From NCBI GenBank assembly GCA_963847445.1, contig CAWJZV010000046.1, positions 256,001 through 320,000 of the forward strand: a DNA stretch of 64,000 nucleotides. Direction: 5' to 3'. Both the position numbers and the translations under genes were made by a program. The DNA comes from an uncultured delta proteobacterium (lineage in GTDB: Bacteria > Desulfobacterota > Binatia > UBA9968). The notes below the pieces were generated by a model, which was not told where the DNA came from, did no database searches, and saw nothing but the letters and a program-made list of their open reading frames with translations. Numbering within the stretch: position 1 is the stretch's first letter; each line of letters begins with the position of its first letter. Positions 119 through 18,004 of the stretch are shown piece after piece.

Positions 119-1153
119 TTAGAATCCGGCGCCTTTGGTGGTCAGTTTCATGCGATAGATATTGGTGTTCGAGGTGATGAACAGCGACGAGCCATCTTCG
201 CCCCAGGCGAGGTTGCCAGTGGGGACGCCGGTTTCAATGCTGCCGAGATGTTTGCCGTCGGCGGAGATGAGGTGGATGCCGCCGGGGCCGGCGCCGAAGA
301 TGTTGCCTTCGCGGTCGACTTTCATGCCGTCGGGTACGCCAGATTTGTTCTTTGCCCATGCCGTGCCGTTGAACAGCACTTTGCCGTTCTCAATGTTTCC
401 GTCCGCTTTAACATCGAAAACCATCCAGACCGCGTTGGCCGGGATCGGCGTTGCTGATGTAGAGCGTCTTTTCATCCGGCGAGAAGGCGATGCCGTTGGG
501 CGCTTTGAGGTCCTTGGTCGAGCAGCGTGAGCTTGCCGTCTTTGGAAGAGTTGTAGACGCCTTGGAACGGAGTCTCTTTGCGCGGGTCGTCGTAGGATTT
601 GCGGCAGACCGAAGGGCGGATCGGTGAAGTACAGATCGCCGTTGGATTTGAACACGACATCGTTGGGGCTGTTGATCCGTTTGCCTTCGTAGCGGTCGAC
701 CAGCGTGGTTTTCTTGCCGGTCTTTTCCAAGCGGCCGATGCGCCGGTCGCCATGTTCCGCCGACACCAGGCGGCCTTCGGGATCGAAGGCGAGGCCGTTG
801 GATCCCGGCTCCGGCCCGTCGAATGGTCGCGGTGCCGGTGTAGCCGCTCGGCTTGAGAAATACGCTGGTGCCTTTGCCCTCCTGCCATTTGATTATCGAG
901 TTGGTCGGGATGTCGGAGAAGAGCAGATAGCCTTCCTTGCGGTTCCACACCGGACCTTCGACCCAGTGGCGACCGCTGACGATGCGTTTCAATCGACGTT
1001 GAGCGGCACGAGCTTGTCGAACCTTGGGTCGATACGAATGATGTCGATTTGCTGGATCGGTTTGGCCGGCTGCGGTTGCGCGAGGGCGCTCGATGCGATC
1101 GTTATGGCGGCGGTGGCCAGGGTCCAATGTAATTAATCGTGAATGAGCTTCAT
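119..1153 (-). CDS. SMP-30/gluconolactonase family protein, probably exported; frameshifted
   Basis: Motifs WVEGPVWN, LLFSDIP, NSPNDVV, FTDPPFG, APNGIAFSPDE and PDGMKVD spread over ORFs 408..1244, 472..948 and 119..766. Confidence 0.88.
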
Positions 1154-1185
1154 GGCTGCTGTCGCGTAGTGTGATCATCGTGATC

Positions 1186-1440
1186 TCAGTCGTTAAAGAT
1201 TGTTCGGAGATACTCGCCGCAGGCGCCGCATACGAGCTCGACATTACTCGGGCCGGAGATTTTCCAAGAAGCGCGGCAGGCTTGCCACGAAGTTCGCAGG
1301 TTTCGTGGCCGAAAAGCGGCAGTCATCGGTCGGACCGTCGGTGTTCGCGGTTGTCGCAGTGGGCGTTAGTTAGATCGTCGATCGGGATCTCGCGTTTGTC
1401 GGCGAAGTTTTGCATCGGAGTTCTCTTTTTCGGTTCCATG
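1186..1440 (-). CDS. small hypothetical protein with a C-terminal CGAC motif; frameshifted
   Basis: ATG just downstream of an ECF-type promoter; a downstream frame reads VELVCGACGEYLRTIFND-stop. Confidence 0.35.
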
Positions 1441-1456
1441 GTGTTGGGTTTAGGAG

Positions 1457-1485
1457 TTAGATGCACCGGTGTGAGCATAGGTTGC
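1457..1485 (-). promoter_or_regulatory. ECF-type promoter, copy 1: GCAACC-N16-CATCTAA
   Basis: Read directly; same motif and spacing recur at 5906, 9887, 10597, 10756 and 17579. Confidence 0.8.
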
Positions 1486-1499
1486 GGGCGGTAGTTTAG

Positions 1500-1682
1500 C
1501 TAATCGGCGATTCGCGAGACCATGGCGCCGCAACCAGGGCAGTTGTGATGTTCTTCAATCAAACCGCCGAGCGAGATGTCGACCTTCGCGGCCTCGGGCA
1601 GTTCGGCAGCGTAGATCAGTTTATCGGCGTGGTGATTTATTTCATCGCCGCACTTAGGGCAGACCATCTTATTCTTTGCCAT
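1500..1682 (-). CDS. small zinc-ribbon protein
   Basis: 60 aa with CPKC and CPGC; GGAG RBS; directly follows the FMN reductase gene. Confidence 0.75.
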   Translation of the reverse strand: MAKNKMVCPKCGDEINHHADKLIYAAELPEAAKVDISLGGLIEEHHNCPGCGAMVSRIAD

Positions 1683-1691
1683 TTCTCCCGG

Positions 1692-2264
1692 TTAGCTTTC
1701 CAGGGCGATGTGGTCGCGGCCGTAGCGTAGAGCCTTGGCCATCCAGACGAGTTCGTCTAAAAATTTGTCGGCGCGCTTGATAAACGCCTGATCGAGGAGC
1801 TTGCCCGATTCGTCGAATACGTTGGCGACGTTGCCGAAGTTGACATCCCAAAAAATATTGACCAGGCCGAGCTCGCGAATCACCGGCAGCAGATTCTGAA
1901 TCGCGCGCACGCCGCCGAAAGGCCCCGCGGATACCCCGACGATTCCGGCCGCTTTGTGGATATACTCCTTCAGGCAGCTGTCGAGCACATGTTTGAGCAG
2001 GCCGGGAAAGCTATGATTGTATTCCGGTGTGACGATCACCAGAGCGTCGGCCATGGCCATTTTTTCCGCGAAGACCGGGTCCTTGATACCATCTCCGGCA
2101 TCATCCATCGGCAATGGTATCTGCGAAATATCGATCAACTCCGTGGTAACTCCCTGCCGATTTGCGATCTGCTCCGTCATGAAGCGCGCCGCGTGGGCGC
2201 TTATGCGTCCTTTGCGGGTTGTTCCGAGAATTACCGGTATGCTCAACGGCCGGGTGTTGATCAT
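1692..2264 (-). CDS. NADPH-dependent FMN reductase (SsuE/ChrR-like flavoprotein)
   Basis: GTTRKGR, TPEYNHSFPGLLKHVLD, GPFGGVRA motifs. Confidence 0.92.
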   Translation of the reverse strand: MINTRPLSIPVILGTTRKGRISAHAARFMTEQIANRQGVTTELIDISQIPLPMDDAGDGIKDPVFAEKMAMADALVIVTPEYNHSFPGLLKHVLDSCLKEYIHKAAGIVGVSAGPFGGVRAIQNLLPVIRELGLVNIFWDVNFGNVANVFDESGKLLDQAFIKRADKFLDELVWMAKALRYGRDHIALES

Positions 2265-3933
2265 CTTACGCTCCTTCGCTGTGCTTGGGAGAGATGGTCA
2301 ACTGCCGCATCAGGCCGAATACCCGGAACATTCAACGCCATGCGATAGAGTGTGTTCTGCGCGGTGATGTAGAGCGTCTTGCCGTCGGCGCCGCCCCAGG
2401 CGAGGTTGTGCGGGTTCTTCGGCGTCTTGATCGTGCCGAGGTGTTTTCGGCGCGAGATCACCCAGATACCGCCGGGGCCGCAGACGTAAAGATTGCCTTG
2501 TGATCGACTTTGATGCCGTCGATGGCGTCTTCGCCGGGCGCCTCGTCATGTCGAAGAAGACTTTGCCGTTGGACAGCGTGCCATCGGCGTCGACTCGGTA
2601 GCGCATGACGACTTTCTTTTCCGGATCCCAGTTGCCGACGTAGAGATATTTCTCGTCCGGCGAGAAGGCGATACCGTTGGGGCCTTTCAGATCGGTGCTG
2701 ATCCAGTTTGAGCTTGCCGTCTTTCAGGCTGAAGACGCCGCTGTAGGGCAACTGTTTGCGCGGGATCGTCGTAGAATTTCGGCAGATCCAAACGGCGGAT
2801 CGGTGAAGAACAGCGCGCCGTCGGAGCGGTAGACGAGATCGTTGGGCCTGTTGAGCCGCTTGCCTTCGTACTGTCGGCGAGAACGGTCACGCGTCCGTCT
2901 TTCTCGATGCGCGCGACACGGTGGTTGCCATGCTCGTTGATCGTCAGCCTTCCTTGCGGGTCGAGGGTTAGGCCGTTGGAGCCGGGCTGAAAATATTCGC
3001 CGATGTCTTTGCCGGAGTAGCCGCTGTTGGTTTTGAAAACCGACAGCTTGCCGTCGCCGCCGTATTTGTAGATCGTATTGGCATTGGGATCGCTGAAGAG
3101 AAAATCGCCGCTCTGGGTCCAGATCGGTCCTTCGGTGAATTGAAAACCTTCGGCGAGCTTAAAAATCTTCGGGTTGAGCGGCACGATGGCATCGATGGCC
3201 GGATCGACGCGCTCGACATTGACGTTGACTTCGTGCGGCGCGACGGCGACCGGTCCAGCCGGGACTTGTGGAATTCCAACCGGCGCATAGCGCATCCAGA
3301 TATAGTTGGTCGGCGGCTGCGATATCGGGCCGTTGGCGCCGAAGATGGCGAGCTGAATGGTCTGCCCCGGCTTGACGCCGCGGCCGATGACCAGACGATT
3401 CTCTGCGTTCCAGCCTTTGATCACCGAGCCGCCGCTCTGGCCGGCGGCGCGCGGCAGTTCGCCGTCGACCCAGACTTCGGCGTAGTCGTCGAGCGAAGTC
3501 GAAAACGACCGTCGAGCCGGTCGGATTGAAGTTGCCGATGCGCTCGGGGACGGTGATCTTGATTCGATACCAATTGAAAGCGAGCTTGCCGTTGGTGCGT
3601 CGCTTATCCAGGCTGGTCGGTTCGATTACTTCCCATTTCGAATCGTCGAATTCGGCACGGCCGGCTTGCGGTGTGATGTCGTAGGTCTTGTTCGGCGTCG
3701 TCGATGGTTGTCCGTCGGCGCCGACGGCTTTGAAATCGACTTCGATAATTTTCGTGTCGCTGTAGCGCCATTGGCCTTTGACGAGTTGGACGCCGCCTTT
3801 GTTCCGAGGTCGACTTTGCGCCTTCGGCGCGCGTTTGGTGGGCTGTTTCGTTGAGGGGATGGCGTGAGACGATTGATTCGGCGCCCAAGTGCAACCACAA
3901 GGGTTGCGGGAATTATACTTGAGTTAGTTTCAT
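2261..3933 (-). CDS. large SMP-30/gluconolactonase family protein with an extra N-terminal domain and signal peptide; frameshifted
   Basis: FQFTEGPIW, FSDPNAN, PGSNGLTLD, GPNDL and DGIKVD in fragments 2687..3424, 2458..2751 and 2261..2461; N-terminal fragments continue to about 3933. Confidence 0.82.
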
Positions 3934-3943
3934 TGAACCTCAG

Positions 3944-4813
3944 TTAGCGGCGCGGACTTTGACGACGTAGTAGTTGAGCGGGCCTTTGACTTCCTTGAAC
4001 CAGTGCGGCGTGTTGTGCGGCACGATGATCACGTCGCCTTTGGTGACGTGCGTCTTTTCGCCGCCTTTGACGTTCGCTGCCGCGGATCTCTTCGGTCTCG
4101 ATGTTTTTACCGCCGACAATGGTGCCGCCGGTGACCGAGGTGGCACTTGCCGTCGAGCATGTAGATGATGTCGGTGTCTTTGGCGTGGACTTCGACCACG
4201 CCGGGCTCGTCACGGTGGCTGGCGTGGACTTTATAGTTGGCGATTTCGAGTAGCGGCATGCCCTTCTCAAACGCCTTGTTCACCTGACCCGCGGAGAAGT
4301 AGTTCGACCTTGGGCGCCGCTGCTTTCGCCATCTCAGTGTCTGCGGTGAACGCCAGCACGTCGGCCTTAGCGATGTCTTCGTCTTCCTTCGGCGTGTTGC
4401 CGCTGACGCCGATGGCGCCGATGGTTTTGCCGTCGACGTTCAGCGGCAAGCCGCCTTGCAGTGGCGTTGCGCCGGGTAGCGCCAGAGACGCGATTCGGCC
4501 ATTCTTTATCTGCTCTTCGAAGTCGCGGCTCGGCCGGCGGAAGATCGCCGCCGTGCGCGCCTTGCCGATGCCGACATCGACACTGGCGACCTGGGTGTCG
4601 TCGAGACGTTTGACGATCAGCGGGTATCCGCCCTCGTCGACCACGACGATGACTACCGTGGCATTGCGTTTCTTGGCTTCGATTTCGGCGGCGAGGGACG
4701 ATCTTTTCCGCCGCCGCGAGTGTGAGAATCTTTTTCTCCGAAAGCTGCGCCGAACTCATTGACGGCGCGATCAGCGCGAATAACACAATCAAGATAAATG
4801 CTTTGAGTTGCAT
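3944..4813 (-). CDS. HbpS/GlcG heme-binding protein fused to a C-terminal cupin; frameshifted
   Basis: Signal peptide; VVDEGG..GKARTAAIFRRPS..LQGGLP..GAIGVSG; cupin KGDVIIVPHNTPHWF. Confidence 0.85.
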
Positions 4814-4899
4814 CCTATTCTCCTTGATCCGAACCGTTGTGCGTTTGAACCCTTCGATTGACTCAGACCAGGCTCTTGAACCTTTGAACGGTTCGTTGC

Positions 4900-5372
4900 T
4901 TAGCGCAGCGCCGCCGCGCCAGCCATAGCGAGATCTTCATCTTGCTGGGCGCTGGAGGCGCCGCTGACGCCGATGGCGCCGACGATCTGGCCGTCGAACA
5001 TGATCGGCACGCCGCCTTGCAGCGGCGTGAAGTCATGCAGCGAAGTCATGGCGGTGCGTCCTTTGTTGATAATGTCCTCGAAAGCTTTGGTCGGCCGTTT
5101 GAAGATCGCCGCGGTACGCGCCTTGCCGATGGAGATGTTTGCGCCGGCGGCGAAGGTGTTATCCAAACGCTCGGCCGCCATCAAGTTGCCACCATCGTCG
5201 ACCACCGCGATGGCGGCGCCGGAGCGTTTAGTTTGTTCGCTTCGGCGACAGCAGCGCCGATGACTTTCTTGGCGCCTGCTAAATTCAGGCCTGGTTTTGC
5301 CGTGGTCTGCGCTTGTGCGTCAGAAATCATTAGGACGGAAAACAAGGTTACAGGCAGGACTAAAAACTTCAT
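4900..5372 (-). CDS. HbpS/GlcG family heme-binding protein, exported; frameshifted
   Basis: Signal peptide; VVDDGG, GKARTAAIFKRPT, LQGGVP, GAIGVSGA. Confidence 0.88.
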
Positions 5373-5456
5373 GGCGTCTCCTGTCGGTTATATTGGCAAA
5401 AATTGCTGGCCGGGCTCTGAAGGGCGAACCCGGCCAGCGTCGCATGGAGGACGGCT

Positions 5457-5861
5457 CTACATGACGGGCTTGTCGAAGGCGGCTTCGCCGAGATTACTCT
5501 CGGCCCAAGCACACCAGATCACGACCTTGGCGACTTCCTTGATGTAGTCGGGCAGAGTGATCTTGCGATTCATCTTGTTGTCTTTAATGGCGATTCTCTG
5601 CAGCATGAAGACCGTGCCCTTGGAGTCGACCACCTGCCAGTGCGGATCGGGCGTATCGGGGTTCTTGAAATCGTCAGACAAGGACAGTACAAGCTTGCCA
5701 CCTTCTTTGCTCGACGTAACAAAGCCGGTATTCGCCTTCGCTCCCTTGAATGCGCCGCTCTTCATCATCATCTCAGCGGCGTAGAGCTGGCTGCTACACA
5801 GCAGACCTGCCCCCAAGGCTACCGCTAAGGTTTTGCCGTGTCGTTTAGTTTTATCTTTCAT
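5457..5861 (-). CDS. DM13-like exported electron-transfer protein
   Basis: Signal peptide; SGAFKG, LSDDFKNPDTPDPH, VVIWCAWAESNLGEA resemble the DM13 pattern; AGGAG RBS. Confidence 0.65.
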   Translation of the reverse strand: MKDKTKRHGKTLAVALGAGLLCSSQLYAAEMMMKSGAFKGAKANTGFVTSSKEGGKLVLSLSDDFKNPDTPDPHWQVVDSKGTVFMLQRIAIKDNKMNRKITLPDYIKEVAKVVIWCAWAESNLGEAAFDKPVM

Positions 5862-5905
5862 CGTACTTTCTCCTTTGTGTTGTGGCTTCATGGCCGATTC
5901 GCCAG

Positions 5906-5934
5906 TTAGATGCAGCGATGGTGAAAAGAGATGC
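5906..5934 (-). promoter_or_regulatory. ECF-type promoter, copy 2: GCATCT-N16-CATCTAA
   Basis: Identical -10 and 16-nt spacer, variant -35; upstream of the DM13-like gene. Confidence 0.7.
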
Positions 5935-6047
5935 GCGGTGCGGGGACTGGAATGCAGAATGGAAAATGGCTAACGCAAAATGGCTGTACCCTTACGATGA
6001 CCGTGGGTGCAGCCTTCTGCCTTCCGACTTGTGATTCTGGCTTCTTG

Positions 6048-7053
6048 CTACGTGAATTGCGGCAGGGCGGTCTCGGCCCAGCGCGGTCGGACGCCGGCCA
6101 TGTCGAGGGACGCCATCACGCGTTTGGGTTCGCCGAGGTCGTTCCAGCGCACGCCGGTGACTTTCAGCACCGCCAGCCGCTCGGGCTTTGAGCGCCAGCA
6201 CTTGGTGGGAAAAGTTGACTTCGTGTCAGGCGAGTTGTAGAGCAGCTCGATCGCTTTCGCTTCCGCGGCAGTGCCGAAAAGCGGCGTCAACGCGGCGAAG
6301 GAGCGATAGAGTTCGGGGATCGCGCTCTCGATGATGTCGAGCAACGCTTGCACCGAGGCGACCATGACAAAGCTGTTCCACAGGCAGCCGCGCAGTTGCA
6401 GCACTTGCGCGAGCATGCGGTTGGGTTTTTCCCAGAAACGGCGCACGCCGAAGACTTTGCGCGTGACCGCGAATGGCCTGGCTCGGTTCGATCCAGCCGT
6501 ATTCGACTTCCGGGCTTTCGGGTTCGAGGCCGAGCAGCATGATCAGATCGCGCCGCGCGGCGGCGGTATCGAGCGCGGTGCGGATCTGCGCCATGAACTT
6601 GGCGTCATCGGAGATGTAATGATCGGAAGGGAAGAACGCGACAATGGCGTTGGGATCCCGCGCCGCGATGCGCAGCAGGCTATATAGGATCGCCGGCGCG
6701 GTGCCGCGATTGCTCGGCTGCACGACCAAGTTGGCAGTCGGTTTGTCGTGCAAGATTGGCTCGGTAGAAATTTTCATGGGCGCGATTGACGACATAGAGC
6801 GTGCGCTGCCGGCGCGAGCTCCAAAGGCGGCACGGTCTTGGGTCTCTTCGAGCAGCGTGCCGCGGCCGAGCACCGAGCAGAACTGTTTGGGCCGCTCGTC
6901 GCCGGCGATATGGCGGGTAAGAGATTTAAGCCGGGTGCCGTCGCCGCCGGCCAAGATGACCGCCCATTCGTGGTCCGCGCGTTGCTCGAATGTTTTTGCT
7001 CGTGCTGTTTCATTTCGCGTCCTCGATCTTTTTAGTTTCGCAGGCCCGTGCAA
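6048..7053 (-). CDS. sugar-phosphate nucleotidyltransferase (mannose-1-phosphate guanylyltransferase-like); frameshifted
   Basis: VILAGGDGTRL, PKQFC, QPSNRGTAPAI, FFPSDH, EYGWIEP, RRFWEKP, WNDLG. Confidence 0.88.
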
Positions 7054-7072
7054 TCGTCCGTCTTTTTTGTGT

Positions 7073-7743
7073 TTAAGTTGCTGTGCGCTACTTTCGGAAG
7101 GATGCGGCGCGGTGATAGTTGCTGCTCAGCTGCCGCCACTGTCACCGCCGCCGCGCCGCGCCGATTCGTCGCGCCGCGCGCGGTCGATTTCTTCGTCGAA
7201 GTCTTTTCCGATGCGTTGGGCTGCTATGCCAAGCTGGTTGTTATCGAGTATGTTGGCCAGAGCTCTTTCGGACGTCGCGACGTATTGTCACGCCGCTATC
7301 CCAAGACAACCCAAAGACCGGGTCTGCCGCGATATACTCGATGGTTTCATGGATGCTCTTGAGGCCGGCTTCGATCTCTTTTCTGCCGCGATCGCGGTCG
7401 CCGCTGCGTAGTAAAGTCAAACCAAGATAGAGATGGGCCAGGGCATCGTCGTGATGGATGCTGACGGCTTTTTCCAGGGTCGTCCGTGCAGCCTTATCAT
7501 TACCGGTTTCGTAGTAGGCTCGGCCTAGATAGGTCAGGACACGTGCCGGGACCCATGTAGGGGTGCGATACTTCGGGTCTGATCGGCGGCGCGCATCAGA
7601 TAGCCGACCGCGTCGTTGGGGCGGCCGGTTTGCAGGGCATTGCGGCCGGCGGTGTACATCGCCGGCGACTGGCACGCTGGCACGCTCGAAAAGTAGATTA
7701 GCGCGGATAAACAGCTCGGAACGAGTAACGTACGAGTCTTCAT
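7073..7743 (-). CDS. TPR-containing exported protein or lipoprotein; frameshifted
   Basis: Hydrophobic N-terminus; TPR-like TYLGRAYYETG and ALAHLYLGLTLL. Confidence 0.7.
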
Positions 7744-7777
7744 GTGAGACCCTCCTAGGTTCTTGGGCTTCACCTTC

Positions 7778-8574
7778 TTAATCCTTAAGACTGCCGGTTT
7801 GCCGCAGAAGATGCAGCGTTTGGCAGTTGTCGTGATGGAGTTTGGCGCAGGCCACATCGTGAGAGCCGCGGCTCCGTATGTAGACCTCCGCAGCCGCCAG
7901 CATGCCGATCAGCGGTGCTGTGAAGTAAACCCAGAGACCGTCCATGAGTTCGCGACAATTGCCGAAGCCAAAGTAGCGCGCCGGATTCATGCTCATGCCG
8001 GAGATCGGCGCTTCGAATGTAATGTACGCAGCTACCAAGCGCCGGCGCACAGGCCGGTAAATTTATGCAGCTTGGGGTGGTTCGAAACATGCAAGATCAC
8101 GGTCATGAGAACGAAGGTAATGGCGATTTCTGCTGCGAACGCTCCAAGACTACCCAAAGTACCGGGCACAGTGACGACGTAATTGACGGACGCGTGCGCC
8201 GCCCTGGGAGGAGTAGAAAGCCGCGATGATGGCGCCGGTGTGGCCGCCGACAAATTGCGCGGCGATGTACAGGATGGCGTCCCACTTGGCGACCTTGCCG
8301 AGCCGGAAGAAGGTTAGGGTGGTCGACGGGTTGAATGCGCGCCGGATTGTTTGCCCCAGGGTGAATAGATGATCGCGATGGCCGTGCCGCCCATCGCCAA
8401 GCCCATCATGAAGCGGCGTAAGCGTAGAGTTGACGACCGCTTGGTGCACGGGGGACGGCTGGATGCTCGAGCAGGGTGGCGAAGCTGAATGCCGAGATCA
8501 TGAATAGCCCCAGGCAGGCGGCTTCGATCAGGTATTCGGGCCAGTGGTGTTTGAGAGCCAGCGTCATCTCTCAT
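7778..8574 (-). CDS. MIP/aquaporin family channel with a Cys/His-rich C-terminal tail; frameshifted
   Basis: HWPEYLIEA start, SGAH..NPS and SGMSMNPAR loops, multiple TM segments, tail CAKLHH..CIFC. Confidence 0.85.
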
Positions 8575-8664
8575 TGGATGACGGCGGCGGAGCGCAAGGG
8601 TGCAGGCGGTTCGTGGCTCGTGCTCGTCGCGGATTCACGAACACGTACGAACCACGTAACTTGA

Positions 8665-9779
8665 TCAATTGAGTTGGATGACGTTCTTGATCCCCGTGGC
8701 TTTGCCGAGCAACAGCTCGCGATGGTCGGTCATGCCAAAACGGCCGGTGATCAACGATCGCACCGCCTCGGGCCAGGCGTCGTTGAAGGTCTGCAGGTCG
8801 CGGATCGCGGTTTCGAAAATGTCGCGGCCGGCGTTGACGGTGCCGAACACCACCTGGTTCTTGAGCACGAGATTGCGCATCATCAGATCGGTGTCGATTT
8901 CCACCGGCCCTTTGCGGCCGGGCACACCGGTGAAGATAAAGATGCCGTTGGTGCCGAGCTATTGCATCATGTCGAAGGCCAGGCGCGACGCGCCGGTGGC
9001 TTCGTAAACCAGGTCGACGTTGCCGATCTCGCGCGGCGAGCTGCTCGAGCGAATGAGTCTGCGCCGAGCGGTACTGGGCGCCGATCATTTCGAGCACGCG
9101 CGGATTTGTCGTTGGGCGCCGGTTCGCGGGCGTAAACGTAGGTGTCGAAGTCGGCATTCACCAGCGCCATCGCGCCGAGCAGGCCGACCGGGCCGGCGCC
9201 GAGCACCACGGCCTTGCGACAATGAGCGCGGGCTTTGCCCGGAACCACCGGGCAGCCCCAGGGCAGCCGTTGCTGGACGTGCCAGACCTGGGCCAGCGCT
9301 TTTTCGGCGATGGTCAGCGGCTCGACCAGCACGGCGACGTCGCGCAGAGCGCGCGGAACGAGGTTCATGTAAACTTCGTCGTCGACGACGAACTGCGTCA
9401 TGAAGCCATGCTGCTCTTTGATGCCGCGCTCGGTGAAGTCGCCGGTGAAGCAAAAGTCCTGGCGGCTCGCGCGGCAGGCCATGCAATGATCGTGGGGGCA
9501 GGGCCGGCGCACCATCGGCACCACCAGATCGCCGACGTTCACCCGCGTGACCTCGGCGCCGACCTCGACGACTTCGCCGAGCGACTCGTGGCCGATCACC
9601 AGATCGGCCATGCCGGCGGGCGGCGTGCCGTACTCGAAGGCGCAGATCTCCCGGTCGGTGCCGCAGACGCCGACTTCGAGCATGCGCAGTTTGACATCGG
9701 TGGGGGAGGACAGCTTGGGTTCGGCGATGTCGATCAGCGAAACCTGTTTGATTGACGGCGTGACGGCGATGGCGCGCAT
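8665..9779 (-). CDS. zinc-dependent glucose 1-dehydrogenase (MDR family); frameshifted
   Basis: GVCGTD, GHESLG, VRRPC..C..C..C, ERGIKEQHGF, EPLTIAEKA, GAGPVG, VFGTVNA. Confidence 0.88.
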
Positions 9780-9886: not shown

Positions 9887-9915
9887 TTAGATGAGTGGGG
9901 CGCGCAAAAGGTTGC
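9887..9915 (-). promoter_or_regulatory. ECF-type promoter, copy 3: GCAACC-N16-CATCTAA
   Basis: Exact motif upstream of the glucose dehydrogenase operon. Confidence 0.8.
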
Positions 9916-9942: not shown

Positions 9943-10209
9943 TTACAGAGAGCGGCGTAACTGCAAATACGGCTGCGGCGGTTTGTTCAGCCGCCCGCGG
10001 AGAAAGCTCCGGGTCATCTCAAGGGTTTTTTTGTAGGTTGCCAAAAACGCGCCGCAGTCTCGGCAAGCGCCGAGGTGTGCTTCGAAGGCACGGCGCTCGG
10101 CTTGGCTCAGATCGTTCGTCAGATAGTCGCTGAGCAGATCGACTTCGTCGCGACAGGTAGAAATGGCGCGGTTAGCGCGGCGATTTTTCCTGGCTGGTTT
10201 GGCAATCAT
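9943..10209 (-). CDS. zf-HC2 (ZAS) anti-sigma-like protein, copy 2
   Basis: TCRDEVDLLSDYL..FEAHLGACRDC (HxxxCxxC). Confidence 0.88.
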   Translation of the reverse strand: MIAKPARKNRRANRAISTCRDEVDLLSDYLTNDLSQAERRAFEAHLGACRDCGAFLATYKKTLEMTRSFLRGRLNKPPQPYLQLRRSL

Positions 10210-10305
10210 GGTTGCATCCTGCGCGGCGAGCGCGCTTCTGTTCCTGGCGAGCCAGGAATGCGTCGCTTCGGATTGGGAAATACTCTGGTGCAGCAAAGGC
10301 CATCA

Positions 10306-10567
10306 CTAGGCCCAAGCCGCGCTGCGACGGCCGAGATTACCGCGCCGCAAGGAGCGAGTCGGTTTGCCGCTGGTTAGACGAACCGGTGCCAACGCGCGCC
10401 CGAATCGAACCCGGTGTGAGAGAAAAAAATATGCGCCAGGCTTTCCATCACCGGGCATCGTCATTGGTCTGGCTGGTGAGTGCCTGCAGGATCTCCAGCA
10501 AACTGGTCTTGATAGTCAGCTTTTTCGATTCGCTGAGTGCATTACCGTTGGCTCGCTCAGTTCTCAT
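10306..10567 (-). CDS. small hypothetical protein related to 17734..17946; frameshifted, missed by the ORF track
   Basis: MRTERANGNALSESKKLTIKTSLLEILQALTSQTNDD..; purine-rich RBS; directly after promoter copy 4. Confidence 0.55.
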
Positions 10568-10589
10568 GTCTGTTGCCCTTTCTATAAGC

Positions 10590-10691
10590 TCAAGACTTAG
10601 ATGCGCCCGGAGCAATAAATGTTACAGCAACGTCATCGTCGGAGTCAGTTATTACGCAGGGGAAAACGGCTTCCCAGCTGTTCATCGTCAT
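10590..10691 (-). CDS. 33-aa small ORF MTMNSWEAVFPCVITDSDDDVAVTFIAPGASKS
   Basis: GAGGAG RBS, downstream of promoter copy 5; RBS spacing fits the second Met better. Confidence 0.35.
   Translation of the reverse strand: MTMNSWEAVFPCVITDSDDDVAVTFIAPGASKS
10597..10625 (-). promoter_or_regulatory. ECF-type promoter, copy 4: GTAACA-N16-CATCTAA
   Basis: Same -10 and spacing. Confidence 0.72.
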
Positions 10692-10755
10692 TTCTCCTCG
10701 TCTGCATCTTCTACGTCTGAGCTCGACCAATGGATTGGCCGAGAACTTTTGTCGA

Positions 10756-10784
10756 TTAGACGTGTGCGGCGAACTTTTGGTTGC
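10756..10784 (-). promoter_or_regulatory. ECF-type promoter, copy 5: GCAACC-N16-CGTCTAA
   Basis: Same motif, downstream of the sigma/anti-sigma pair. Confidence 0.8.
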
Positions 10785-10876
10785 AGGCCATTGGCGGGGC
10801 TTCGCTAAGAGGCGGGCCTGCCGAGTGAAGTAGGATGGGCTGGTTCAGAGGTGACAAGGGGCAGGCGAGGCAGATG

Positions 10877-11188
10877 TTACGCCGCCAGCTGAGTCAAGAG
10901 GCAAAAAACTATCGCGGTGACTCGGCGCAGTTTGCTGCGCAGAAAGCCAAGCACGTTGTCGCGCACCTTGGGCGGAATCTCATCGGCGCCTAATGTCGCG
11001 GTGGTTTGGACCGTCTTCTTGTAGGTTTTCACAAAATTGACGCAGTCCGGACAGCTGCTCAGATGTTGAGTAAACGCTTGTTTCACCGTTGGGCGCAGTT
11101 TGTCGGTTAAGTAATCCAGCAGCAGATCGGCGATCTGTTTACAGGTTTTTGCGGCTAACGGGCGGCGCGTCGTTTTGACTTTGGGCAT
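10877..11188 (-). CDS. zf-HC2 (ZAS) anti-sigma factor, copy 1
   Basis: TCKQIADLLLDYL..FTQHLSSCPDC; immediately downstream of the ECF sigma gene. Confidence 0.9.
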   Translation of the reverse strand: MPKVKTTRRPLAAKTCKQIADLLLDYLTDKLRPTVKQAFTQHLSSCPDCVNFVKTYKKTVQTTATLGADEIPPKVRDNVLGFLRSKLRRVTAIVFCLLTQLAA

Positions 11189-11202
11189 CGATGACTCTTT
11201 CC

Positions 11203-11946
11203 TTACGCTGCGGAGATAGCCGAGTTGGACCGCCAGCTTGCCGCGCAGGAACAGGCGCGCGCGATGCAGCCGAGTTTTGACCGCCGAGACCGTCAAGCCG
11301 GTGGCGGCGGCGATTTCCTTATCGGCCAAGCCTTCGAGATCGCTCAGGACGATGACGTTTTATCGACCGGTTTCAATTGTTCGAGGGCTCTCGCGATCAG
11401 CGCTTGAGTTTCACTCTTGGCGTAGTGTTCGTCGAGGGTATCCGACCAGTCGACCACCGGCCGCGCTGATGGTGGCCGTCGGCTTGAAACTTGGGCAGGA
11501 ATTCCTCGTAGGCGATTTCCTTATTTTTCTTGCTGCGGCGAATGCGACCCAAGCGCGGCGTTGACAGTCAGCCGATAGAGCCAGGTGGAGAATTGCGAAT
11601 GGCCCTGGAACAATGGGCTTTGCGGAAGGCGGTGAGAAAAACATCCTGGATCACTTCTTCGGCGTCGCGGGGCATCGCCTTCAGAATGCGCAACGCGACG
11701 TTGTAGAGTTTGCCGGAATAAAGGTTGAAAGCCTGCTCCAGGGCGGCGTGGTCGCCGGCCTTGAAGCCGGGTCACGAGATTGACTTCGTCCTGGGCCCGA
11801 CCGCGGGGTTTGGGCGCCAGCGAGGGGTTAGCGTTGCGCCGGGCGATCTCGCGAGCCAGCGGCGGTGTCAAACTGCGGCCGCGCGATCGTTCAACCGATT
11901 CGTTGTCCAAAATAATCATGATCCCCTCCCCATCGAATGACATCAT
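11203..11946 (-). CDS. ECF sigma-70 family factor; frameshifted
   Basis: Region 2 (DAEEVIQDVF, FQGHSQFSTWLYRLTVNAA) and region 4 (KEIAAATGLTVSAVKTRLHRAR). Confidence 0.9.
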
Positions 11947-11978
11947 TGTGAAGTTAATAGTTTTTGCGCGTTGCCCGA

Positions 11979-12260
11979 CTAAGCGCCTGTTTCGCTGTCG
12001 GAGCTTCCTAGGAGCATTTCAATAAATGGCGAGCAGTTGACGATGTGGAAAGACCCGCCGCGCAGCTTGGTTAATCTGCGTGCGACTTCGTCGCTCATGT
12101 ACACCACGCCGGTCATATCGAGAATTAAATTTACCGAATCAGCCCGGTCGTGAAGCGACCAGATTTTTTCCAGTTCGGCGTAAGATTGTGAGTCAATATT
12201 GCCATCCAGCCGTATTCGTTTGGTGGTTTCGTTGACGTTTTGTTCGGTGATTCTCAGCAT
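11979..12260 (-). CDS. STAS-domain protein
   Basis: MLRITE..IRLDGNI..LILDMTGVVYMS..IVNCSPFI. Confidence 0.8.
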   Translation of the reverse strand: MLRITEQNVNETTKRIRLDGNIDSQSYAELEKIWSLHDRADSVNLILDMTGVVYMSDEVARRLTKLRGGSFHIVNCSPFIEMLLGSSDSETGA

Positions 12261-12296
12261 GTTTTTCTTCGCCTGACTTGCTTGCCCAAGCTATTT

Positions 12297-12312
12297 AGCA
12301 GATGTCATGCCA
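12297..12312 (-). promoter_or_regulatory. sigma54 -24/-12 promoter TGGCATGACATCTGCT
   Basis: GG-N10-GC spacing, about 35 bp upstream of the STAS start, divergent from a sigma54 activator. Confidence 0.78.
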
Positions 12313-12365
12313 CATCGTAAGCTTTGAAATAAATTAAAGTTTCGCAAAAATAGCCGATGGGGTGC

Positions 12366-12411
12366 TGTGGCATTTCGTTGTGGTATTTCGCGATGGTTGC
12401 GAAATGCCGCA
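12366..12411. promoter_or_regulatory. candidate upstream activator sequence (TGTGGCATTTCG, TGTGGTATTTCG, inverted CGAAATGCCGCA)
   Basis: Two direct and one inverted copy of a 12-mer, with an AT-rich tract between it and the sigma54 site. Confidence 0.6.
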
Positions 12412-12485
12412 AGCAGCTGGTAGAGTTTTCATGCTCCTAACGATCGCGACTGCACGGCATTCGGCAGTCAACAAAGGCATGGTGT

Positions 12486-15198
12486 ATGTCTGATCCGCAA
12501 AACCTTGGTGTTCGAATGACGCCCGCAGATCCTTCAGTAAGCGTCTGCTTCGGTGCCCAGGTGAGCGATATTTCTCCGTCCAGCCATGTCGCTTACTTTT
12601 GGAACGATGAAAAGGAGTTTGCCGATGGCGTGAAGTTTCTCGAGTCCGGACTATCGGCCAGCGATCACTGTGTGATTTTTGGCCACGATGAAGCCAATCA
12701 AATGGTTTGCGACGTGCTTAAGGGACGCGGCTATGACGTCGATGGTTTGCTGGCATCCGGGCGCATCACTATCCTCGGCGGCGGCCACGGAAGCGTCGGA
12801 GATTCTCGCCAAGATCGGCGCGGTGTTTGAAAAATCATTGGCCGCCGGCGCGTCGCTGATTCGACTTTTAGGCAACATCGGTTGGGGCAGAGCCAACTGG
12901 CCGGACGAAAAATCGTTGCTGGCGTTCGAAGCGCAGGTGACCGAAGCGGCGAAACAGTTTCCTTGCGTCGTGGTCTGCATGTACGACGTCGCCGGTTTGC
13001 CAGGATCGATCGTCCACCATGGCGGGATCGGCACTCATCCGCATATCGTCAGCAACGGCCACGCGCAAGCCAACCCGCATTATGTGCCGACCGAGATCTT
13101 CTTGCGCCGCATGGAAACCGTTGCCGGCGCGGTGGCCGAGCGCCGGCGCAACGAAGCAACGCTGCACCATATCACCGAAGGCACGGTGCAGATCGTCGGC
13201 GACGATTTTTTTCGCCAACTGGCGCGCCATCTCGCCGAGGCGCTGCGTGTCCGCTACTGCTTCGTCACCGAATGCACCGACGATTCGCAGACCCGGCTGC
13301 GCGCGCTGGCGTTTTGGGACGGCCATGGGTTTGCGCAAAACGTCGAATATCCGCTGCGCGGCACGCCCTGTGAAAAAGTCATCGAAGGCAATATTTGCTC
13401 CTACCCCGATCGGCTGCAATCAGCTGTTTCCCGAGGACAAGGATCTGGTCACCCTCGGCGCTGAAAGCTACGCCGGCGTGCCGCTGGCCGAACTCGACAG
13501 GGCCGGGTGCTCGGCCATCTGGTGGTGATGGACAACCGCGCGCGCGAGTTTGGCCCGGCGAAAATGAGCTGCGCATATTGCGTATCTTCGCCACCCGCGC
13601 CGGCATCGAACTCGAACGGAGCGCGCCGACGCAGGTACCTCTAACGCCGAATTGACGCGCGCAATAAACAGATCGCGGCGAAACGCGTGGCAATCTGCTC
13701 GAAGTCAACAATGCGATCGTCACCAAACTGACCCGGGATGAGCTTTTCGCGGTGATCTGCTGACTCACTGGCAGCAAGGCGATCTGTTTCGACCGGCTGG
13801 CGCTTTCGCTTTACGATCCGGAGCTCAAAGCCTTGCGGATCGTCACCTACGCCGGCGCCTATCAGCGGGCGGATTACACGCCGATCGGCCGCGTGCTGAA
13901 ACTCGACGACAGCCCGGCGGGGCAGGCGTTTTGCCAGCCAAAAACCGGTCCTGTGCAGCGATCTTGAAATCGAGCGACTGCACCGCTTCCGAGGAACGCG
14001 CTTACGGCCATGGCTTTCGCTCGATGTGTGCTGTTGCCTCTGGTGGTGCATGGCCGATCCATCGGCGCCATTACGGTCGGCAGCCTGACCCGTTCGCAGT
14101 ATTCCGCAGCCGACGCGGAGTTTCTCATGGAGGTGGCCAACCAGATCGCCATCGCCGTCGAGAATATGCAGCTGCACGAAGAGACCGCCAGCGCTGAAAG
14201 CGCGCTTCGAGGCCGAGACGGTTTATCTTGCAGGAAGAAATCAAGACCGAGCATAACTTCGAAGAGATCATCGGCCAGAGCGCGCCGGTGCGCGAGCTCT
14301 TGCGCAAGGTCGAGCAGGTGGCGCCCACCGACGCCACGGTGTTGATTTGCGGCGAGACCGGCACCGGCAAGGAATTGTTGGCGCGCGCGGTGCACGACCG
14401 CAGCAAGCGCAAGGATCGCGCCGTTGGTCAAAGTCAATTGCGGCTCGATCCCGTCGGGTCTGGTGGAAAGCGAGCTGTTCGGCCATGAAAAGGGCGCGTT
14501 TACCGGCGCCACCCAGCGGCGCATCGGCCGCTTCGAACTCGCCCATGGCGGGACGATCTTTCTCGATGAGGTGACCGAGTTGCCGCTCGATACCCAGGTC
14601 AAACTGTTGCGCGTGCTGCAAGAAGGCGAGTTCGAACGAGTCGGCAGCAGCCAGACGATCAAGGTCGACGTGCGCGTGATCGCCGCGACCAATCGCGATC
14701 TCGAAGCAGGTCGTCGGCAACGGCAGTTTTCGCGCCGATTTATTTTATCGTCTTGAATGTTTTTCCGCTGGAAGTGCCGCCGCTGCGCGAGCGCAAGGAC
14801 GATATCCCGTTGTTGGTCAACTTTTTCTTGAGCCGGTTCGGCAAGAAGCTCGGCAAAGAAGTGCGCGGCGTGACGCGGCGCTCGATGGAGAGTCTGGTTC
14901 GCTACAGCTGGCCGGGCAACATTCGCGAGCTGCAAAACGTCATCGAACGCGCGGTGGTGCTGGCCACTGGCCCGGTGGTGCAAGTGGAGAAGCGATGCGG
15001 CCTTGCGGCGAAAACGCCGGCCAGGAGGAACCGCGCCTGCGACTCTGGAGAACAACGAGCGGGCGCATATTCAACGCGCGCTAGCCGAAACCAACTGGGT
15101 GATTCATGGCAAGAAGGGCGCGGCGGAGCTGCTCGGCATCAACCCGAGCACGCTTGCGCTCGCGCATGGAGAAACTAGGGATCAAGAAGCAGGCGTAA
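12486..15198 (+). CDS. sigma54-dependent activator, MEDS-GAF-GAF-AAA+-HTH (FhlA-like); frameshifted
   Basis: MEDS (HVAYFW..LLAFEA..VCMYD), GAF (YPLRGTPC), [54 protein letters not shown]. Confidence 0.92.
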
Positions 15199-15207
15199 CC
15201 TAGCTTG

Positions 15208-15332
15208 AGGTTCAAATCGTTCAAATCGTTCAAGCCGTTCAAATCGCTGATCGCTCAACGATTCGAACGGATCGTAGCGATTGAACGGCTTGAACGTTTT
15301 GAACGACTGGAGCGTTTGAACGACTTGAACGC
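15208..15332. repeat. inverted pair of 9-bp tandem repeat arms (GTTCAAATC / TTGAACG family)
   Basis: gttcaaatc-gttcaaatc-gttcaagcc-gttcaaatc followed by complementary ttgaacg units; related arms at about 4845, 42523, 44808 and 46741-46890. Confidence 0.85.
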
Positions 15333-17008: not shown

Positions 17009-17530
17009 CTATTCGGCGAGCAGTTGTTTGATCGTCGACTCGGTTTTGCCGTAGGCGCCTTCGCCTATATGGCTGTAGCGGATTGAGCCCTTTTTGTCGA
17101 CCAGCACGATGGTCGGCCAAGCCCAGACGCCGTAGCGTTTCCAAATATCGAAGTTGTTGTCTTGCACCACCGGGAACTTGATGCCGAGTTTCGCCGTCGC
17201 ATCTTTCACTTTGTCGATTGGTTTCTCCCAAGGAAACTCCGGCGAGTGGACGCCGACGATGGTTAATCCGGCTTGCTCGTACTTATCATGCCAACTCCGC
17301 AACTGCGGGATGATGTTTTTGCAATTGATTCAGCCATAGGTCCAGAATTCCACAAGGACGACTCGGCCTTTAAGGCTCGCGATGGTCAGCGGTTTGCTGT
17401 TGATCCAATTATCGCCGGCGATATCCGGCGCCGTCGTGCCGCTGGTGAGCGCCGCGCCGGCGCGCGGCCATGCCAGCCAAATCGCTAGCGCGAGAACCAA
17501 AGCGACTGAATAAGCTGTCAAACGCACCAT
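17009..17530 (-). CDS. exported redoxin (TlpA/DipZ-C-like thioredoxin fold) with an in-frame TGA at the catalytic site; probable selenoprotein (UxxC)
   Basis: ORFs 17330..17530 and 17009..17302 are in one frame: [32 protein letters not shown]; hairpin CCGC-AGTT-GCGG about 21 nt after the TGA. Confidence 0.88.
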
Positions 17531-17578
17531 GTACTTTTACCATTTCTCCTCGACCCTAGCGGCATGTCAGCGCATCAA

Positions 17579-17607
17579 TTAGATGCCATCCGCACCGGAG
17601 TGGTTGC
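17579..17607 (-). promoter_or_regulatory. ECF-type promoter, copy 6: GCAACC-N16-CATCTAA
   Basis: Exact motif upstream of redoxin-msrP-msrQ. Confidence 0.82.
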
Positions 17608-17683
17608 GAGGTTGGGCAAATTTTCTATTAAACGTCGGTTTGCCGGGCAAAGTTCCCCAGCGGTGACTGACAAAGTGAATTTC

Positions 17684-17727
17684 AAAAAACCCAGCCGGGG
17701 GCTCGTGAGAGCCCCGGCGCGGTGGGT
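17684..17727 (-). terminator. rho-independent terminator
   Basis: GCCGGGGCTC/GAGCCCCCGGC hairpin followed by a T run on the minus strand, after 17734..17946. Confidence 0.8.
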
Positions 17728-17733
17728 GGGCGG

Positions 17734-17946
17734 TTAGTGGAGGAGTTGGGAGAGGGGCGCAAAATTTTCTAATTCTTTATCTAAGTCAACCGGTTGGGCA
17801 GTTTTCTTGATCATTTCCATCACCGCGAATCGAGCCAGGTTGTAAGCGTCTTTATCGTTGTCGGAGTATTCGAAAGCGACTTCGCTGGCGGCGGCGATCA
17901 AATCTCCCAAGGTGGTGTCGATCCTGCGGCTATTGGGTTTTTCCAT
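17734..17946 (-). CDS. small hypothetical protein (IDTTLGDLIAAA motif)
   Basis: 70 aa, AAAGGA RBS, own promoter and terminator. Confidence 0.75.
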   Translation of the reverse strand: MEKPNSRRIDTTLGDLIAAASEVAFEYSDNDKDAYNLARFAVMEMIKKTAQPVDLDKELENFAPLSQLLH

Positions 17947-17976
17947 GGTCTCGCGGGTCCTTTCTCCCTTGCTTGG

Positions 17977-18004
17977 TTAGACGATTGCGGAGAAAAAAGG
18001 ATGT
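17977..18004 (-). promoter_or_regulatory. ECF-type promoter, copy 7 (variant): ACATCC-N15-CGTCTAA
   Basis: Same -10; spacer is one short but contains a T6 homopolymer prone to indel error. Confidence 0.55.

Follow-up and report, generated by a model that had tools for sequence, protein, structure and literature searches.

The window analysed here is a stretch of 64,000 nucleotides (positions 256,001 to 320,000 of contig CAWJZV010000046.1, assembly GCA_963847445.1) from an uncultured delta proteobacterium of the Binatia, a soil bacterium, and its first 18 kb carry a gene cluster arranged around a sigma factor of the extracytoplasmic function (ECF) type and a zinc-binding anti-sigma factor (ZAS). 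We refer to the genome of the window (7.19 Mb, 48 contigs) as G000 and to the contig of the window as C46. The sigma gene lies between a small STAS-domain gene and the anti-sigma gene ZAS1, a second anti-sigma gene (ZAS2) is found further along the same strand, and the gene of a sigma-54 enhancer-binding protein (EBP) is divergent from this operon (Table 1). An earlier note, made from the letters alone, had described the cluster as a self-contained ECF regulon marked by seven copies of the bipartite motif GCAACC-N16-C[A/G]TCTAA. Its gene list was right: Pfam recovers redoxin-MsrPQ, two HbpS-like proteins, FMN reductase, glucose dehydrogenase, two SGL lactonases and a MIP channel. For the protein that it had called DM13-like, there is no Pfam match but an alignment at 28% identity (E 2e-5) to a true DM13 protein from this genome.

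Seven related sites, all on one strand and within 18 kb, are present in the cluster, and the original wording, seven copies of a consensus, was overstated. Positions and strand hold for all of them and the spacing for all but site 17977; the exact motif occurs only four times (1457, 9887, 10756 and 17579, all on the minus strand). These four are the only exact matches in the whole 7.19-Mb genome, and the expectation for the window is 0.00 (100 dinucleotide-preserving shuffles). Sites 5906 (GCATCT) and 10597 (GTAACA) have two mismatches each in the -35 element and a spacer of exactly 16 nt, while site 17977 reads ACATCC-N15-CGTCTAA, with a spacer one base shorter than that of the other sites. 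Allowing up to two mismatches yields 8 matches in the window vs 2.49 expected; the matches at 19190 (-) and 34811 (+) score below 9 bits with the weight matrix described below and were treated as chance. Behind site 5906 runs a series of genes for the DM13-like protein, an HbpS-like protein, HbpS-like/cupin, SGL lactonase 2, FMN reductase and a zinc-ribbon protein, and behind site 9887 glucose dehydrogenase, MIP, TPR and NTP transferase.

To place these sites in an evolutionary context, we used orthologous loci from genomes of the same genus and from GenBank metagenome-assembled genomes (MAGs) labelled 'Candidatus Binatia', 'uncultured delta proteobacterium' and a few others. One locus (L019, genome G005) is unpublished; it is included in the relatives' -35 forms, strand counts, matrix seeds and target counts, as well as in the sigma-54 promoter and dyad, ZAS-copy and co-occurrence counts given below, and no conclusion rests on it alone. 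Across 31 loci (358 kb), the heptamer CRTCTAA is found 110 times on the strand of the sigma gene vs 12 times on the opposite strand, and TGCAACCTTT emerges at a fixed distance upstream of it with no -35 element assumed beforehand. At orthologous sites the -35 element takes the forms GCAACC, GTAACY, GCATCY and GCACCY, and the -10 element is nearly always CATCTAA or CGTCTAA; the GCATCT variant of site 5906 also occurs at the orthologous sites of L013, L019 and L021. Given that these -35 variants recur, the two 'mismatched' sites of the window fall within the natural range of the motif, the full form of which is tGCAACyTTT-N12-gCRTCTAA, equivalent to G[C/T]A[A/T/C]C[C/T]-N16-CRTCTAA.

A weight matrix built from 75 of 102 CRTCTAA seeds, all from relatives and none from the window, finds every one of the six N16 sites of the window, at 20.4-29.0 bits, the next best score in the 64 kb being 12.7. 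Over G000, it returns 11 matches of at least 20 bits vs 2 in locally shuffled sequence (6 vs 0 at 24 bits or more), and six of the 11 are the N16 sites of the window. The motif thus occurs at a frequency well above that of random positions. Its placement is equally regular: sites of at least 18 bits number 107 on the sigma strand and 0 on the opposite strand of the 31 loci, a count that is partly circular as 75 of them trained the matrix. As had been proposed, each copy sits just upstream of a gene, with an open reading frame (ORF) starting within 260 nt of 102 of the 107 sites (median 37 nt) and site-to-gene distances of about 14-130 nt in the window. In the orthologous Binatia-type loci, the motif is kept on the sigma strand and ahead of the same genes. 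Judged by this comparison, it is a real and conserved set of predicted promoters.

We consider it probable that this set is read by the neighbouring ECF sigma factor, as part of the circuit set out below. The target set is conserved in the relatives, as is synteny around the sigma gene, and every sigma-bearing locus shows the pile-up of sites on one strand, which supports the earlier proposal that the motif forms the ECF-type promoter set of the neighbouring sigma/ZAS pair. The 11 other sigma-70/ECF genes of G000 have no such site within 3 kb, bar one look-alike of 13.2 bits. This sequence, TTAACC-N15-CGTCTAA, has a different -35 element and spacer, precedes an RpoE-like ECF gene on contig C45 and is probably that gene's own autoregulatory promoter. 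At the C45 locus (C45:83608-84880; L111 2609-3829), the ECF sigma gene is followed by those for a zf-HC2 anti-sigma of the membrane type and for a basic repeat protein.

The genes found most often behind sites in the 31 loci are those for a small protein of about 85 aa followed by ZAS2 (21 loci), glucose dehydrogenase (14 loci), a 'WEWPK' protein of about 65 aa (12 loci), the MIP channel (9 loci), HbpS-like proteins (7 loci), NTP transferase (6 loci), the 144-aa DM13-like protein (4 loci), and redoxin, MsrP and a spondin-domain protein (3 loci each). Cytochrome b561, MOSC/YiiM, a second FMN reductase, rhodanese and DUF520 are further targets in relatives. Pfam and NCBIfam hold no family for either small protein; in the Atlas, the 87-aa protein matched only a Binatota 'hypothetical' cluster and the 67-aa protein gave no trustworthy match. 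In the window, the 'WEWPK' protein is degenerate (10593-10691, minus strand), with only its first ~10 residues alignable and promoter 10756 intact. The 70-aa ORF behind site 17977 (17734-17946, minus strand) has a short I-x-T-T-x-x-D/E-L-I/L pattern in common with the ~85-aa family, and distant paralogy of the two is possible.

The loci also vary in gene content. In relatives, the cluster additionally contains a TMEM175-type potassium channel and a spondin-domain protein (in G004, L015 16820-17467 and 18722-19513), neither of which was found in the window's cluster. Genome G003 (L108, G003:C34), with 90-94% nucleotide identity in the flanks, is without a 7.4-kb stretch that corresponds to window positions 7833-15219, so that the genes for MIP, glucose dehydrogenase, ZAS2, the small ORFs, ZAS1, sigma, STAS and the EBP are gone. 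Its TPR gene abuts MsrQ, and nothing in it could be aligned to window positions 1-7126.

Table 1. Features of the cluster (window positions) and matrix matches elsewhere in the genome (contig:position)
Feature	Position	Strand	Remarks
SGL/gluconolactonase-family gene 1	119..1322	-	frameshifted in this assembly
ECF-type promoter site	1457..1485	-	exact consensus; upstream of SGL lactonase 1; 26.7 bits
63-aa zinc-ribbon ORF	1500-1691	-	
NADPH-dependent FMN reductase	1692-2264	-	
SGL lactonase 2	2261..3923	-	unassigned N-terminal domain of ~300 aa; several frameshifts
Cupin + HbpS-like, and second HbpS-like gene	3940..5387	-	frameshifted; cupin + HbpS-like is one fused gene in G004
144-aa secreted DM13-like protein	5457..5891	-	
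ECF-type promoter site	5906..5934	-	GCATCT -35 variant; 14 nt upstream of DM13-like gene; 26.8 bits
NTP_transferase (mannose-1-P guanylyltransferase-like), TPR, MIP channel, archaeal-type glucose dehydrogenase	6048..9779	-	each frameshifted
ECF-type promoter site	9887..9915	-	exact consensus; 107 nt upstream of glucose dehydrogenase; 29.0 bits
ZAS2, second zf-HC2 anti-sigma paralogue	9943..10296	-	C-x25-H-x3-C-x2-C; no adjacent sigma
Conserved ~85-aa small protein	10306..10566	-	frameshifted; found so far only in Binatota-type records
ECF-type promoter site	10597..10625	-	GTAACA -35 variant; ~30 nt upstream of ~85-aa small protein + ZAS2; 26.5 bits
ECF-type promoter site	10756..10784	-	exact consensus, CGTCTAA -10; upstream of degenerate ~65-aa 'WEWPK' protein copy; 21.4 bits
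ZAS1, zf-HC2 anti-sigma	10877..11188	-	directly downstream of sigma
ECF sigma factor	11200..11946	-	regions 2 and 4; six single-base indels vs G021
Small STAS-domain protein	11979..12260	-	first gene of sigma operon
Sigma-54 promoter TGGCATGACATCTGCT	12297..12312	-	~37 nt upstream of STAS start codon
Putative enhancer (upstream activating sequence)	12365..12415	.	repeated TGCGAnATTTCGCAA-like dyads; divergent intergenic region
Sigma-54 EBP, MEDS-GAF-AAA+(GAFTGA)-HTH_8	12486..15203	+	divergent; many frameshifts
MsrQ	15239-15919	-	
MsrP	16017-16979	-	
Secreted redoxin	17009-17536	-	one frameshift
ECF-type promoter site	17579..17607	-	exact consensus; 48 nt upstream of redoxin-MsrP-MsrQ; 20.4 bits
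70-aa ORF	17734..17946	-	behind the 17977 variant site
Weakest site	17977..18004	-	ACATCC-N15-CGTCTAA; upstream of 70-aa ORF; 20.2 bits only with 15-nt spacer allowed
Satellite site	C46:217163		29.9 bits, genome's best; DM13 protein, GMC oxidoreductase, glyoxalase-family gene
Satellite site	C46:213613		22.7 bits; 418-aa protein, MGH1-like (mannosylglycerate hydrolase-like) glycosidase
Satellite site	C46:208992		24.0 bits; small ORF, solute-binding protein, MatE
Satellite site	C18:131347		23.3 bits; glutathione-disulfide reductase 20 nt downstream (TIGR01424, 648 bits)
Satellite site	C15:50880		24.2 bits; small ORFs

The predicted regulon is not self-contained, as five of the 11 genome matches of at least 20 bits lie outside the window; that no site occurs beyond 18 kb is true of the 64-kb window and untrue of the genome. 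The satellites on C46 are 39-47 kb away from the cluster, and glutathione reductase is on another contig. DM13 and GMC oxidoreductase genes also stand behind sites in G008, G014 and G015, at 40-50 kb from the sigma gene in two contiguous assemblies. Weaker same-strand sites on contig C5 (L109) at 9547 (15.9 bits), 10936 (15.1) and 12124 (19.4) precede, in this order, a methyltransferase gene, a DUF3641-containing gene and a DedA/VTT-pyridine-nucleotide-disulfide oxidoreductase gene. Sites of this type are matched in G003, G009, G022 and G004, the 19.4-bit site at C5:12124 recurring in G004, and the group may be a further satellite of the regulon. One genome match, C25:81761, falls within uvrA and was rejected as a false positive, since the stretch is conserved as coding sequence in G003, G004, G008 and G014.

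The sigma factor comprises regions 2 and 4 only (Sigma70_r2 and Sigma70_r4_2, in the window fragments and in intact 253-aa orthologues) and scores 102 bits against TIGR02937 (cut-off 42.9). Intact orthologues are 236-272 aa long (19 of 21 alignment rows); their ~60 N-terminal residues are not conserved in sequence, so we make no claim of a regulatory N-terminal extension. The best match among solved structures is SigW (5WUQ, E 6e-25). The lineage is found here only in Binatia-type MAGs, with SigW as its nearest characterised relative by sequence. The gene at position +1 of sigma is of the zf-HC2 type in the window as well as in every locus that reaches this position. ZAS1 and ZAS2 are both short (about 90-105 aa), and inspection by eye shows no transmembrane stretch in either. 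All 48 ZAS1/ZAS2 copies contain C-x25-H-x3-C-x2-C, a count that documents presence per locus rather than independent invariance given that the retrieval pattern required this motif; a separate alignment of ZAS2 shows no change at residues C17, H43, C47 and C50 in any of its 16 rows. Against the RsrA equivalog TIGR03988, ZAS1 reaches 29.8 bits (cut-off 62.5), which is not equivalog-level.

The ZAS2 gene lies behind an ECF-type site, and negative feedback on sigma is possible. A complex model of sigma (residues 60-253) with ZAS2 scored 0.83, vs 0.01 for the best of 3 controls, and places contacts on both regions 2 and 4; agreement between runs reaches at least 86% of contacts, with a partner pLDDT of 77 or more. 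The mark of 0.83 is reached by 116 of 157 solved complexes and by 2 of 215 mismatched pairs. Structures of ECF sigma factors bound to class-I anti-sigmas are available and ZAS1 is a cousin of ZAS2, so the score may reflect no more than likeness.

A second sigma system appears to act above the first. In 21 of 21 loci, no ECF-type site scores above 8.7 bits between -350 and +60 of the promoter of the STAS-sigma-ZAS1 operon, and by this measure sigma is not autoregulated from a promoter of its own type. Instead, 14 of 14 loci have a sigma-54 promoter pattern, TGGCAY-N5-nTGC, at 45-53 nt ahead of the STAS start codon, with -24 GG and -12 GC elements at 10-nt spacing; it is the only match between 250 and 280 kb of C46 and one of 69 in the genome. 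Together with upstream dyads, the promoter is present in 21 loci, each with two or three TGCGAnATTTCGCAA-like dyads 75-115 nt upstream of it. A GCAACC hexamer at 12395-12400 (-) is part of such a dyad (TTTCGCAACC) rather than an ECF -35 element and has no CRTCTAA 16 nt on. The EBP is intact in G004 and G014 (1016-1055 aa) and combines MEDS-GAF-AAA+-HTH_8 in the window and in G014, and PAS-GAF-AAA+-HTH_8 in G004 (Sigma54_activat and HTH_8); GAFTGA is visible in the translation of 14346-14756. An rpoN gene is available in the genome as an open 494-aa frame on contig C9 (TIGR02395, 445.8 bits). Promoter, dyads, EBP and rpoN are thus all present in the sequence, from which we infer their activity, and sigma itself is probably under the control of sigma-54 and the EBP.

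In the circuit that these elements suggest, the divergent EBP (MEDS or PAS, GAF, AAA+, HTH_8) would bind the dyads and, with sigma-54, transcribe STAS-sigma-ZAS1. Soluble ZAS1 would hold sigma until a second signal arrives, possibly thiol oxidation. Free sigma would then drive at least six or seven promoters in the 18-kb cluster and the satellites, with redoxin-MsrPQ, the two runs behind sites 5906 and 9887, lactonase 1, DM13-GMC oxidoreductase-glyoxalase and glutathione reductase among the outputs. It would also drive the two conserved small proteins and ZAS2, which might re-capture sigma, as the complex model supports. Oxidant repair and redox functions are well represented among these genes and their counterparts in relatives (MsrPQ and the secreted redoxin, glutathione reductase, FMN reductases, HbpS-like proteins, DM13, cytochrome b561, MOSC and rhodanese), next to sugar oxidation (archaeal-type glucose dehydrogenase, two lactonases, GMC oxidoreductase) and transport (the MIP channel). 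This set is in keeping with repair of oxidised methionine and of cysteines or thiols, joined to an oxidation of sugars that may yield NAD(P)H. The ideas of oxidative or reactive-chlorine stress and of a thiol switch would likewise fit the gene content and the C-x25-H-x3-C-x2-C spacing.

A more elaborate reading is tentative. It sees a three-layer circuit private to the Binatia, in which EBP and sigma-54 license expression, an RsrA-like, thiol-sensing ZAS gate adds the second input of a two-signal AND gate, and ZAS2, co-made with the two lineage-specific small proteins from sigma's own target promoters, provides shut-off. Periplasmic methionine-sulfoxide repair would be coupled to an oxidative glucose-gluconolactone shunt, from which glutathione and FMN reductases would receive regenerated NAD(P)H, and the MIP channel could serve as a conduit for oxidant or water.

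The regulon could also be real and yet serve osmotic or desiccation adaptation or a switch of carbon source, comprising sugar oxidation, compatible-solute turnover and water or glycerol flux, rather than oxidative or chlorine stress. We regard this as unlikely, though it would fit the MIP channel, glucose dehydrogenase, the two lactonases and the GDP-mannose-type NTP transferase among the targets, the satellites before the MGH1-like glycosidase, the GMC oxidoreductase and the solute-binding protein with MatE, and an EBP whose MEDS/PAS-GAF sensor type is linked to small molecules rather than redox. MsrPQ and redoxin, glutathione reductase, FMN reductase, HbpS-like proteins, rhodanese, MOSC/YiiM and cytochrome b561 fit oxidant repair, and the RsrA-like Cys/His spacing is invariant among the retrieved ZAS copies. 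Moreover, ECF control of msrPQ in connection with hypochlorite or chlorite is documented in the accessible parts of two reports (PMC4436054, PMC8315932).

Whether the circuit functions in this particular genome is a separate matter, as stop-to-stop ORFs split many of its genes across frames (the lactonases, HbpS-like/cupin, NTP transferase, TPR, MIP, glucose dehydrogenase, redoxin, EBP and sigma). It is conceivable, if quite unlikely, that the circuit is a decaying relic, silent here though working in relatives. Sigma carries its six single-base indels in ~760 bp, the EBP has at least 15 single-base gaps relative to relatives, all 16 sigma orthologues elsewhere are open, and the genome's own rpoB, rpoC and dnaE are intact. 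In addition, the close relative G003 has lost window positions 7.8-15.2 kb including sigma and EBP, the small 'WEWPK' ORF is degenerate, and in long-ORF coverage the cluster ranks at the 5th percentile. Used as a proxy for frameshifts, however, this coverage does not single out the cluster as an extreme outlier, and other 18-kb stretches of the genome score even lower. Frameshifts are patchy across the G000 assembly, and canonical uvrA (C25:79476-81931) and a dnaE2-type gene (C30:221674-224394) are each found in four frame pieces. In comparison with relatives, substitutions are dominated by the third codon position in every gene tested (sigma 32/15/64, EBP 128/90/307, glucose dehydrogenase 72/46/204), indicating that the indels are either very recent or artefacts. 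Most of the single-base gaps are insertions in the window, a typical signature of consensus error, and all promoter sites are intact. In public sequencing runs, up to 0.21 of the sampled words were present. Assembly error is clearly the likelier source of the frameshifts than decay; the genes of the window are probably mis-assembled, not dead, and intact orthologues, e.g. those of G004 (sigma gene at L015:7141-7902) and G015, are the ones to use.

The assignment of the promoters to the neighbouring ECF sigma factor draws on neighbourhood and co-occurrence, and the latter is supportive, not decisive. Of the 30 other genomes of the genus, 16 have a sigma orthologue with an open frame. The 17 sigma-bearing genomes (G000 included) hold 93 matches to GYAHCY-N16-CATCTAA vs 23 in the control, and the most contiguous sigma-less genomes (G044, G019, G045 and G046) are at background, with 5 matches vs 6. 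The looser form GYAHCY-N16-CRTCTAA was abandoned as a phylogenetic-profile test because its control rate is near the signal; the CATCTAA-only form separates better, though not cleanly.

Several observations weigh against this assignment. The 14 sigma-less genomes taken together still show 36 matches vs 10 in the control, and G007 and G016 are among those enriched. In G023 (97% complete, 650 contigs), the best match to sigma has 36% identity, and sites persist before redoxin-MsrPQ (22.9 bits) and nearby (30.9 bits); G003 is without the sigma module and has kept an identical redoxin promoter. Most ECF sigma factors are autoregulated, and with no own-type promoter ahead of this one the usual anchor between motif and sigma is lost. 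The score of sigma falls below the cut-off of every NCBIfam equivalog (best PRK11922, 154.4 vs 204). The -10 element CGTCTAA is common to the likely promoters of paralogous ECF genes, which in relatives have GGAACTTTT...CGTCTAA upstream. Finally, with sigma, EBP and many targets frameshifted, the circuit may not work in this genome.

A different ECF sigma factor, e.g. one of the RpoE-like paralogues found in all genomes of the genus, could read the sites, with the adjacent sigma having another target set or one that overlaps with that of the paralogue. We judge this improbable, even though the adjacent sigma has no own-type promoter, even though sites persist before redoxin-MsrPQ and elsewhere in G023, G007 and G003, where no orthologue above 38% identity was found, and even though the paralogues' upstream sequences, be it GGAACTTTT...CGTCTAA or TTAACC-N15-CGTCTAA, have the same -10 element. 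With the -10 element common to paralogues, it is best seen as generic, leaving the -35 element and CATCTAA as the parts specific to this cluster; the former is distinct from the paralogues' sites (G-C/T-A-x-C-Y, with G and A near-invariant). The sites also pile up on one strand wherever sigma is present, and the most contiguous sigma-less genomes are at background; G023, G007 and G016 are fragmented (190-650 contigs) and may contain a sigma gene that was not assembled. That the motif is no promoter at all and instead either a dispersed repeat or a site bound by a conventional transcription factor is highly improbable: bipartite sites of fixed spacing can also be operators, but the spacer sequence is not conserved as in a repeat element, strand bias relative to the downstream gene is strict (110 vs 12 and 107 vs 0), distances to start codons are short with the direction fixed, and the AAC-N16/17-CGTC/TCTAA form corresponds to motifs that PMC7826278 gives for ECF21, ECF30 and ECF111.

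The neighbouring ECF sigma factor remains our preferred reader of the set, and each layer of the proposed circuit is known from elsewhere: the ECF promoter form, ZAS proteins, sigma-54-dependent ECF genes and ECF-driven msrPQ. To our knowledge, the Binatia (Binatota) have no cultured member. The related records used here are all MAGs, and a full-text literature search returned no paper combining 'Binatota' with 'sigma factor'. Any regulatory circuit deduced for this group therefore constitutes new information on its stress response. The earlier note had not known its combination of clustered genes as a described system. In the literature searched, we did not find the combination of layers proposed here described either, although a matching ECF subgroup could exist in the supplements to PMC7826278, and ECF-driven msrPQ, one part of the claim, has already been described in the passages available from PMC4436054 and PMC8315932. 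What would be new is the combination: a non-autoregulated ECF sigma factor that has a ZAS partner while being under sigma-54 and an EBP, together with a second ZAS dependent on the ECF factor, two small proteins specific to the lineage and the target set. Promoters, sigma and anti-sigmas also offer an apparently orthogonal set with ~100 natural promoter variants that can be tested directly in E. coli.

Among characterised systems, the regulon content points to SigF-NrsF (ECF16, Azospira; PMC4436054) and BcrS-AbcS (Brucella; PMC8315932), in which, as the sections available describe, ECF sigma factors control yedYZ/msrPQ-mrpX under hypochlorite or chlorite. The sigma gene adjoins the operon for a periplasmic methionine-sulfoxide reductase and drives it, as is proposed for the window. 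Both systems have an anti-sigma of another type: NrsF is a membrane anti-sigma, whereas the Binatia anti-sigmas are soluble zf-HC2 proteins, and the SigF and BcrS regulons are tiny (one operon), with no sigma-54 layer described in those sections, compared with a larger cluster plus satellites in the Binatia. A methionine-rich, MrpX-like gene was not noticed in the Binatia cluster, for which no systematic search was made.

The anti-sigmas recall SigR-RsrA (ECF12), the thiol-stress switch of Streptomyces. The ligand spacing of RsrA is presumably also C-x25-H-x3-C-x2-C, as in ZAS1 and ZAS2. The promoter form of SigR differs from the Binatia motif, and we know of no sigma-54 input to SigR. SigR is autoregulated, whereas the Binatia sigma is without an own-type promoter. 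Both systems have a small soluble zinc anti-sigma and thiol-reductase targets (PMC4960319, PMC3961337, in the portions accessible), the latter represented in the Binatia by glutathione reductase and redoxin. For the sigma protein, SigW of the SigW-RsiW pair (Bacillus subtilis, ECF30) is the best match among structures and named NCBIfam models, though with 129.5 bits it falls below the equivalog cut-off of 209. According to the accessible part of the ECF classification (Casas-Pastor et al. 2021, PMC7826278), the ECF30 motifs TGCAACA/TGAAACTTT and CGTC/CTCTAAT resemble that of the Binatia, and ECF21 (GCAACC / CGTCT), ECF30 and ECF111 have similar promoter forms. RsiW is membrane-anchored and removed by proteolysis, unlike the short, soluble ZAS1 and ZAS2, and the regulon contents differ. 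The gene order STAS, ECF, soluble zinc-finger anti-sigma is that of ECF19s7/s18, with STAS at -1 and the anti-sigma at +1 (PMC7826278, same part). These subgroups are mostly actinobacterial there, and their anti-sigma is fused to a mycothiol-isomerase-like domain, unlike in the Binatia; SigK-type models match the Binatia sigma weakly (76.6 bits vs a cut-off of 226).

For the layer above sigma, the closest counterpart is HrpR/HrpS-sigma-54-HrpL of Pseudomonas syringae (ECF32), a likeness limited to the sigma-54 input to the ECF gene. In this cascade, as the available text of PMC8999054 describes, the ECF gene is transcribed from a sigma-54 promoter under an EBP, and the ECF factor then drives a clustered regulon. 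HrpL has no anti-sigma, whereas the Binatia sigma has two ZAS proteins and a STAS protein; HrpL targets type III secretion through the hrp-box, the Binatia sigma repair and redox genes through a different motif. The Binatia EBP carries MEDS/PAS-GAF sensor domains, unlike HrpR/HrpS, and negative feedback acts at the sigma-54 promoter in the case of HrpL and, as a candidate mechanism, via the second anti-sigma in the Binatia. The circuit may thus be viewed as an HrpL-like cascade plus ZAS control, the combination being what is new. It would join two modes of ECF control that reviews treat as alternatives, transcriptional by sigma-54 and an EBP (as in HrpL, with no anti-sigma) and post-translational by a ZAS, and would add to them a second anti-sigma behind an ECF-dependent promoter.

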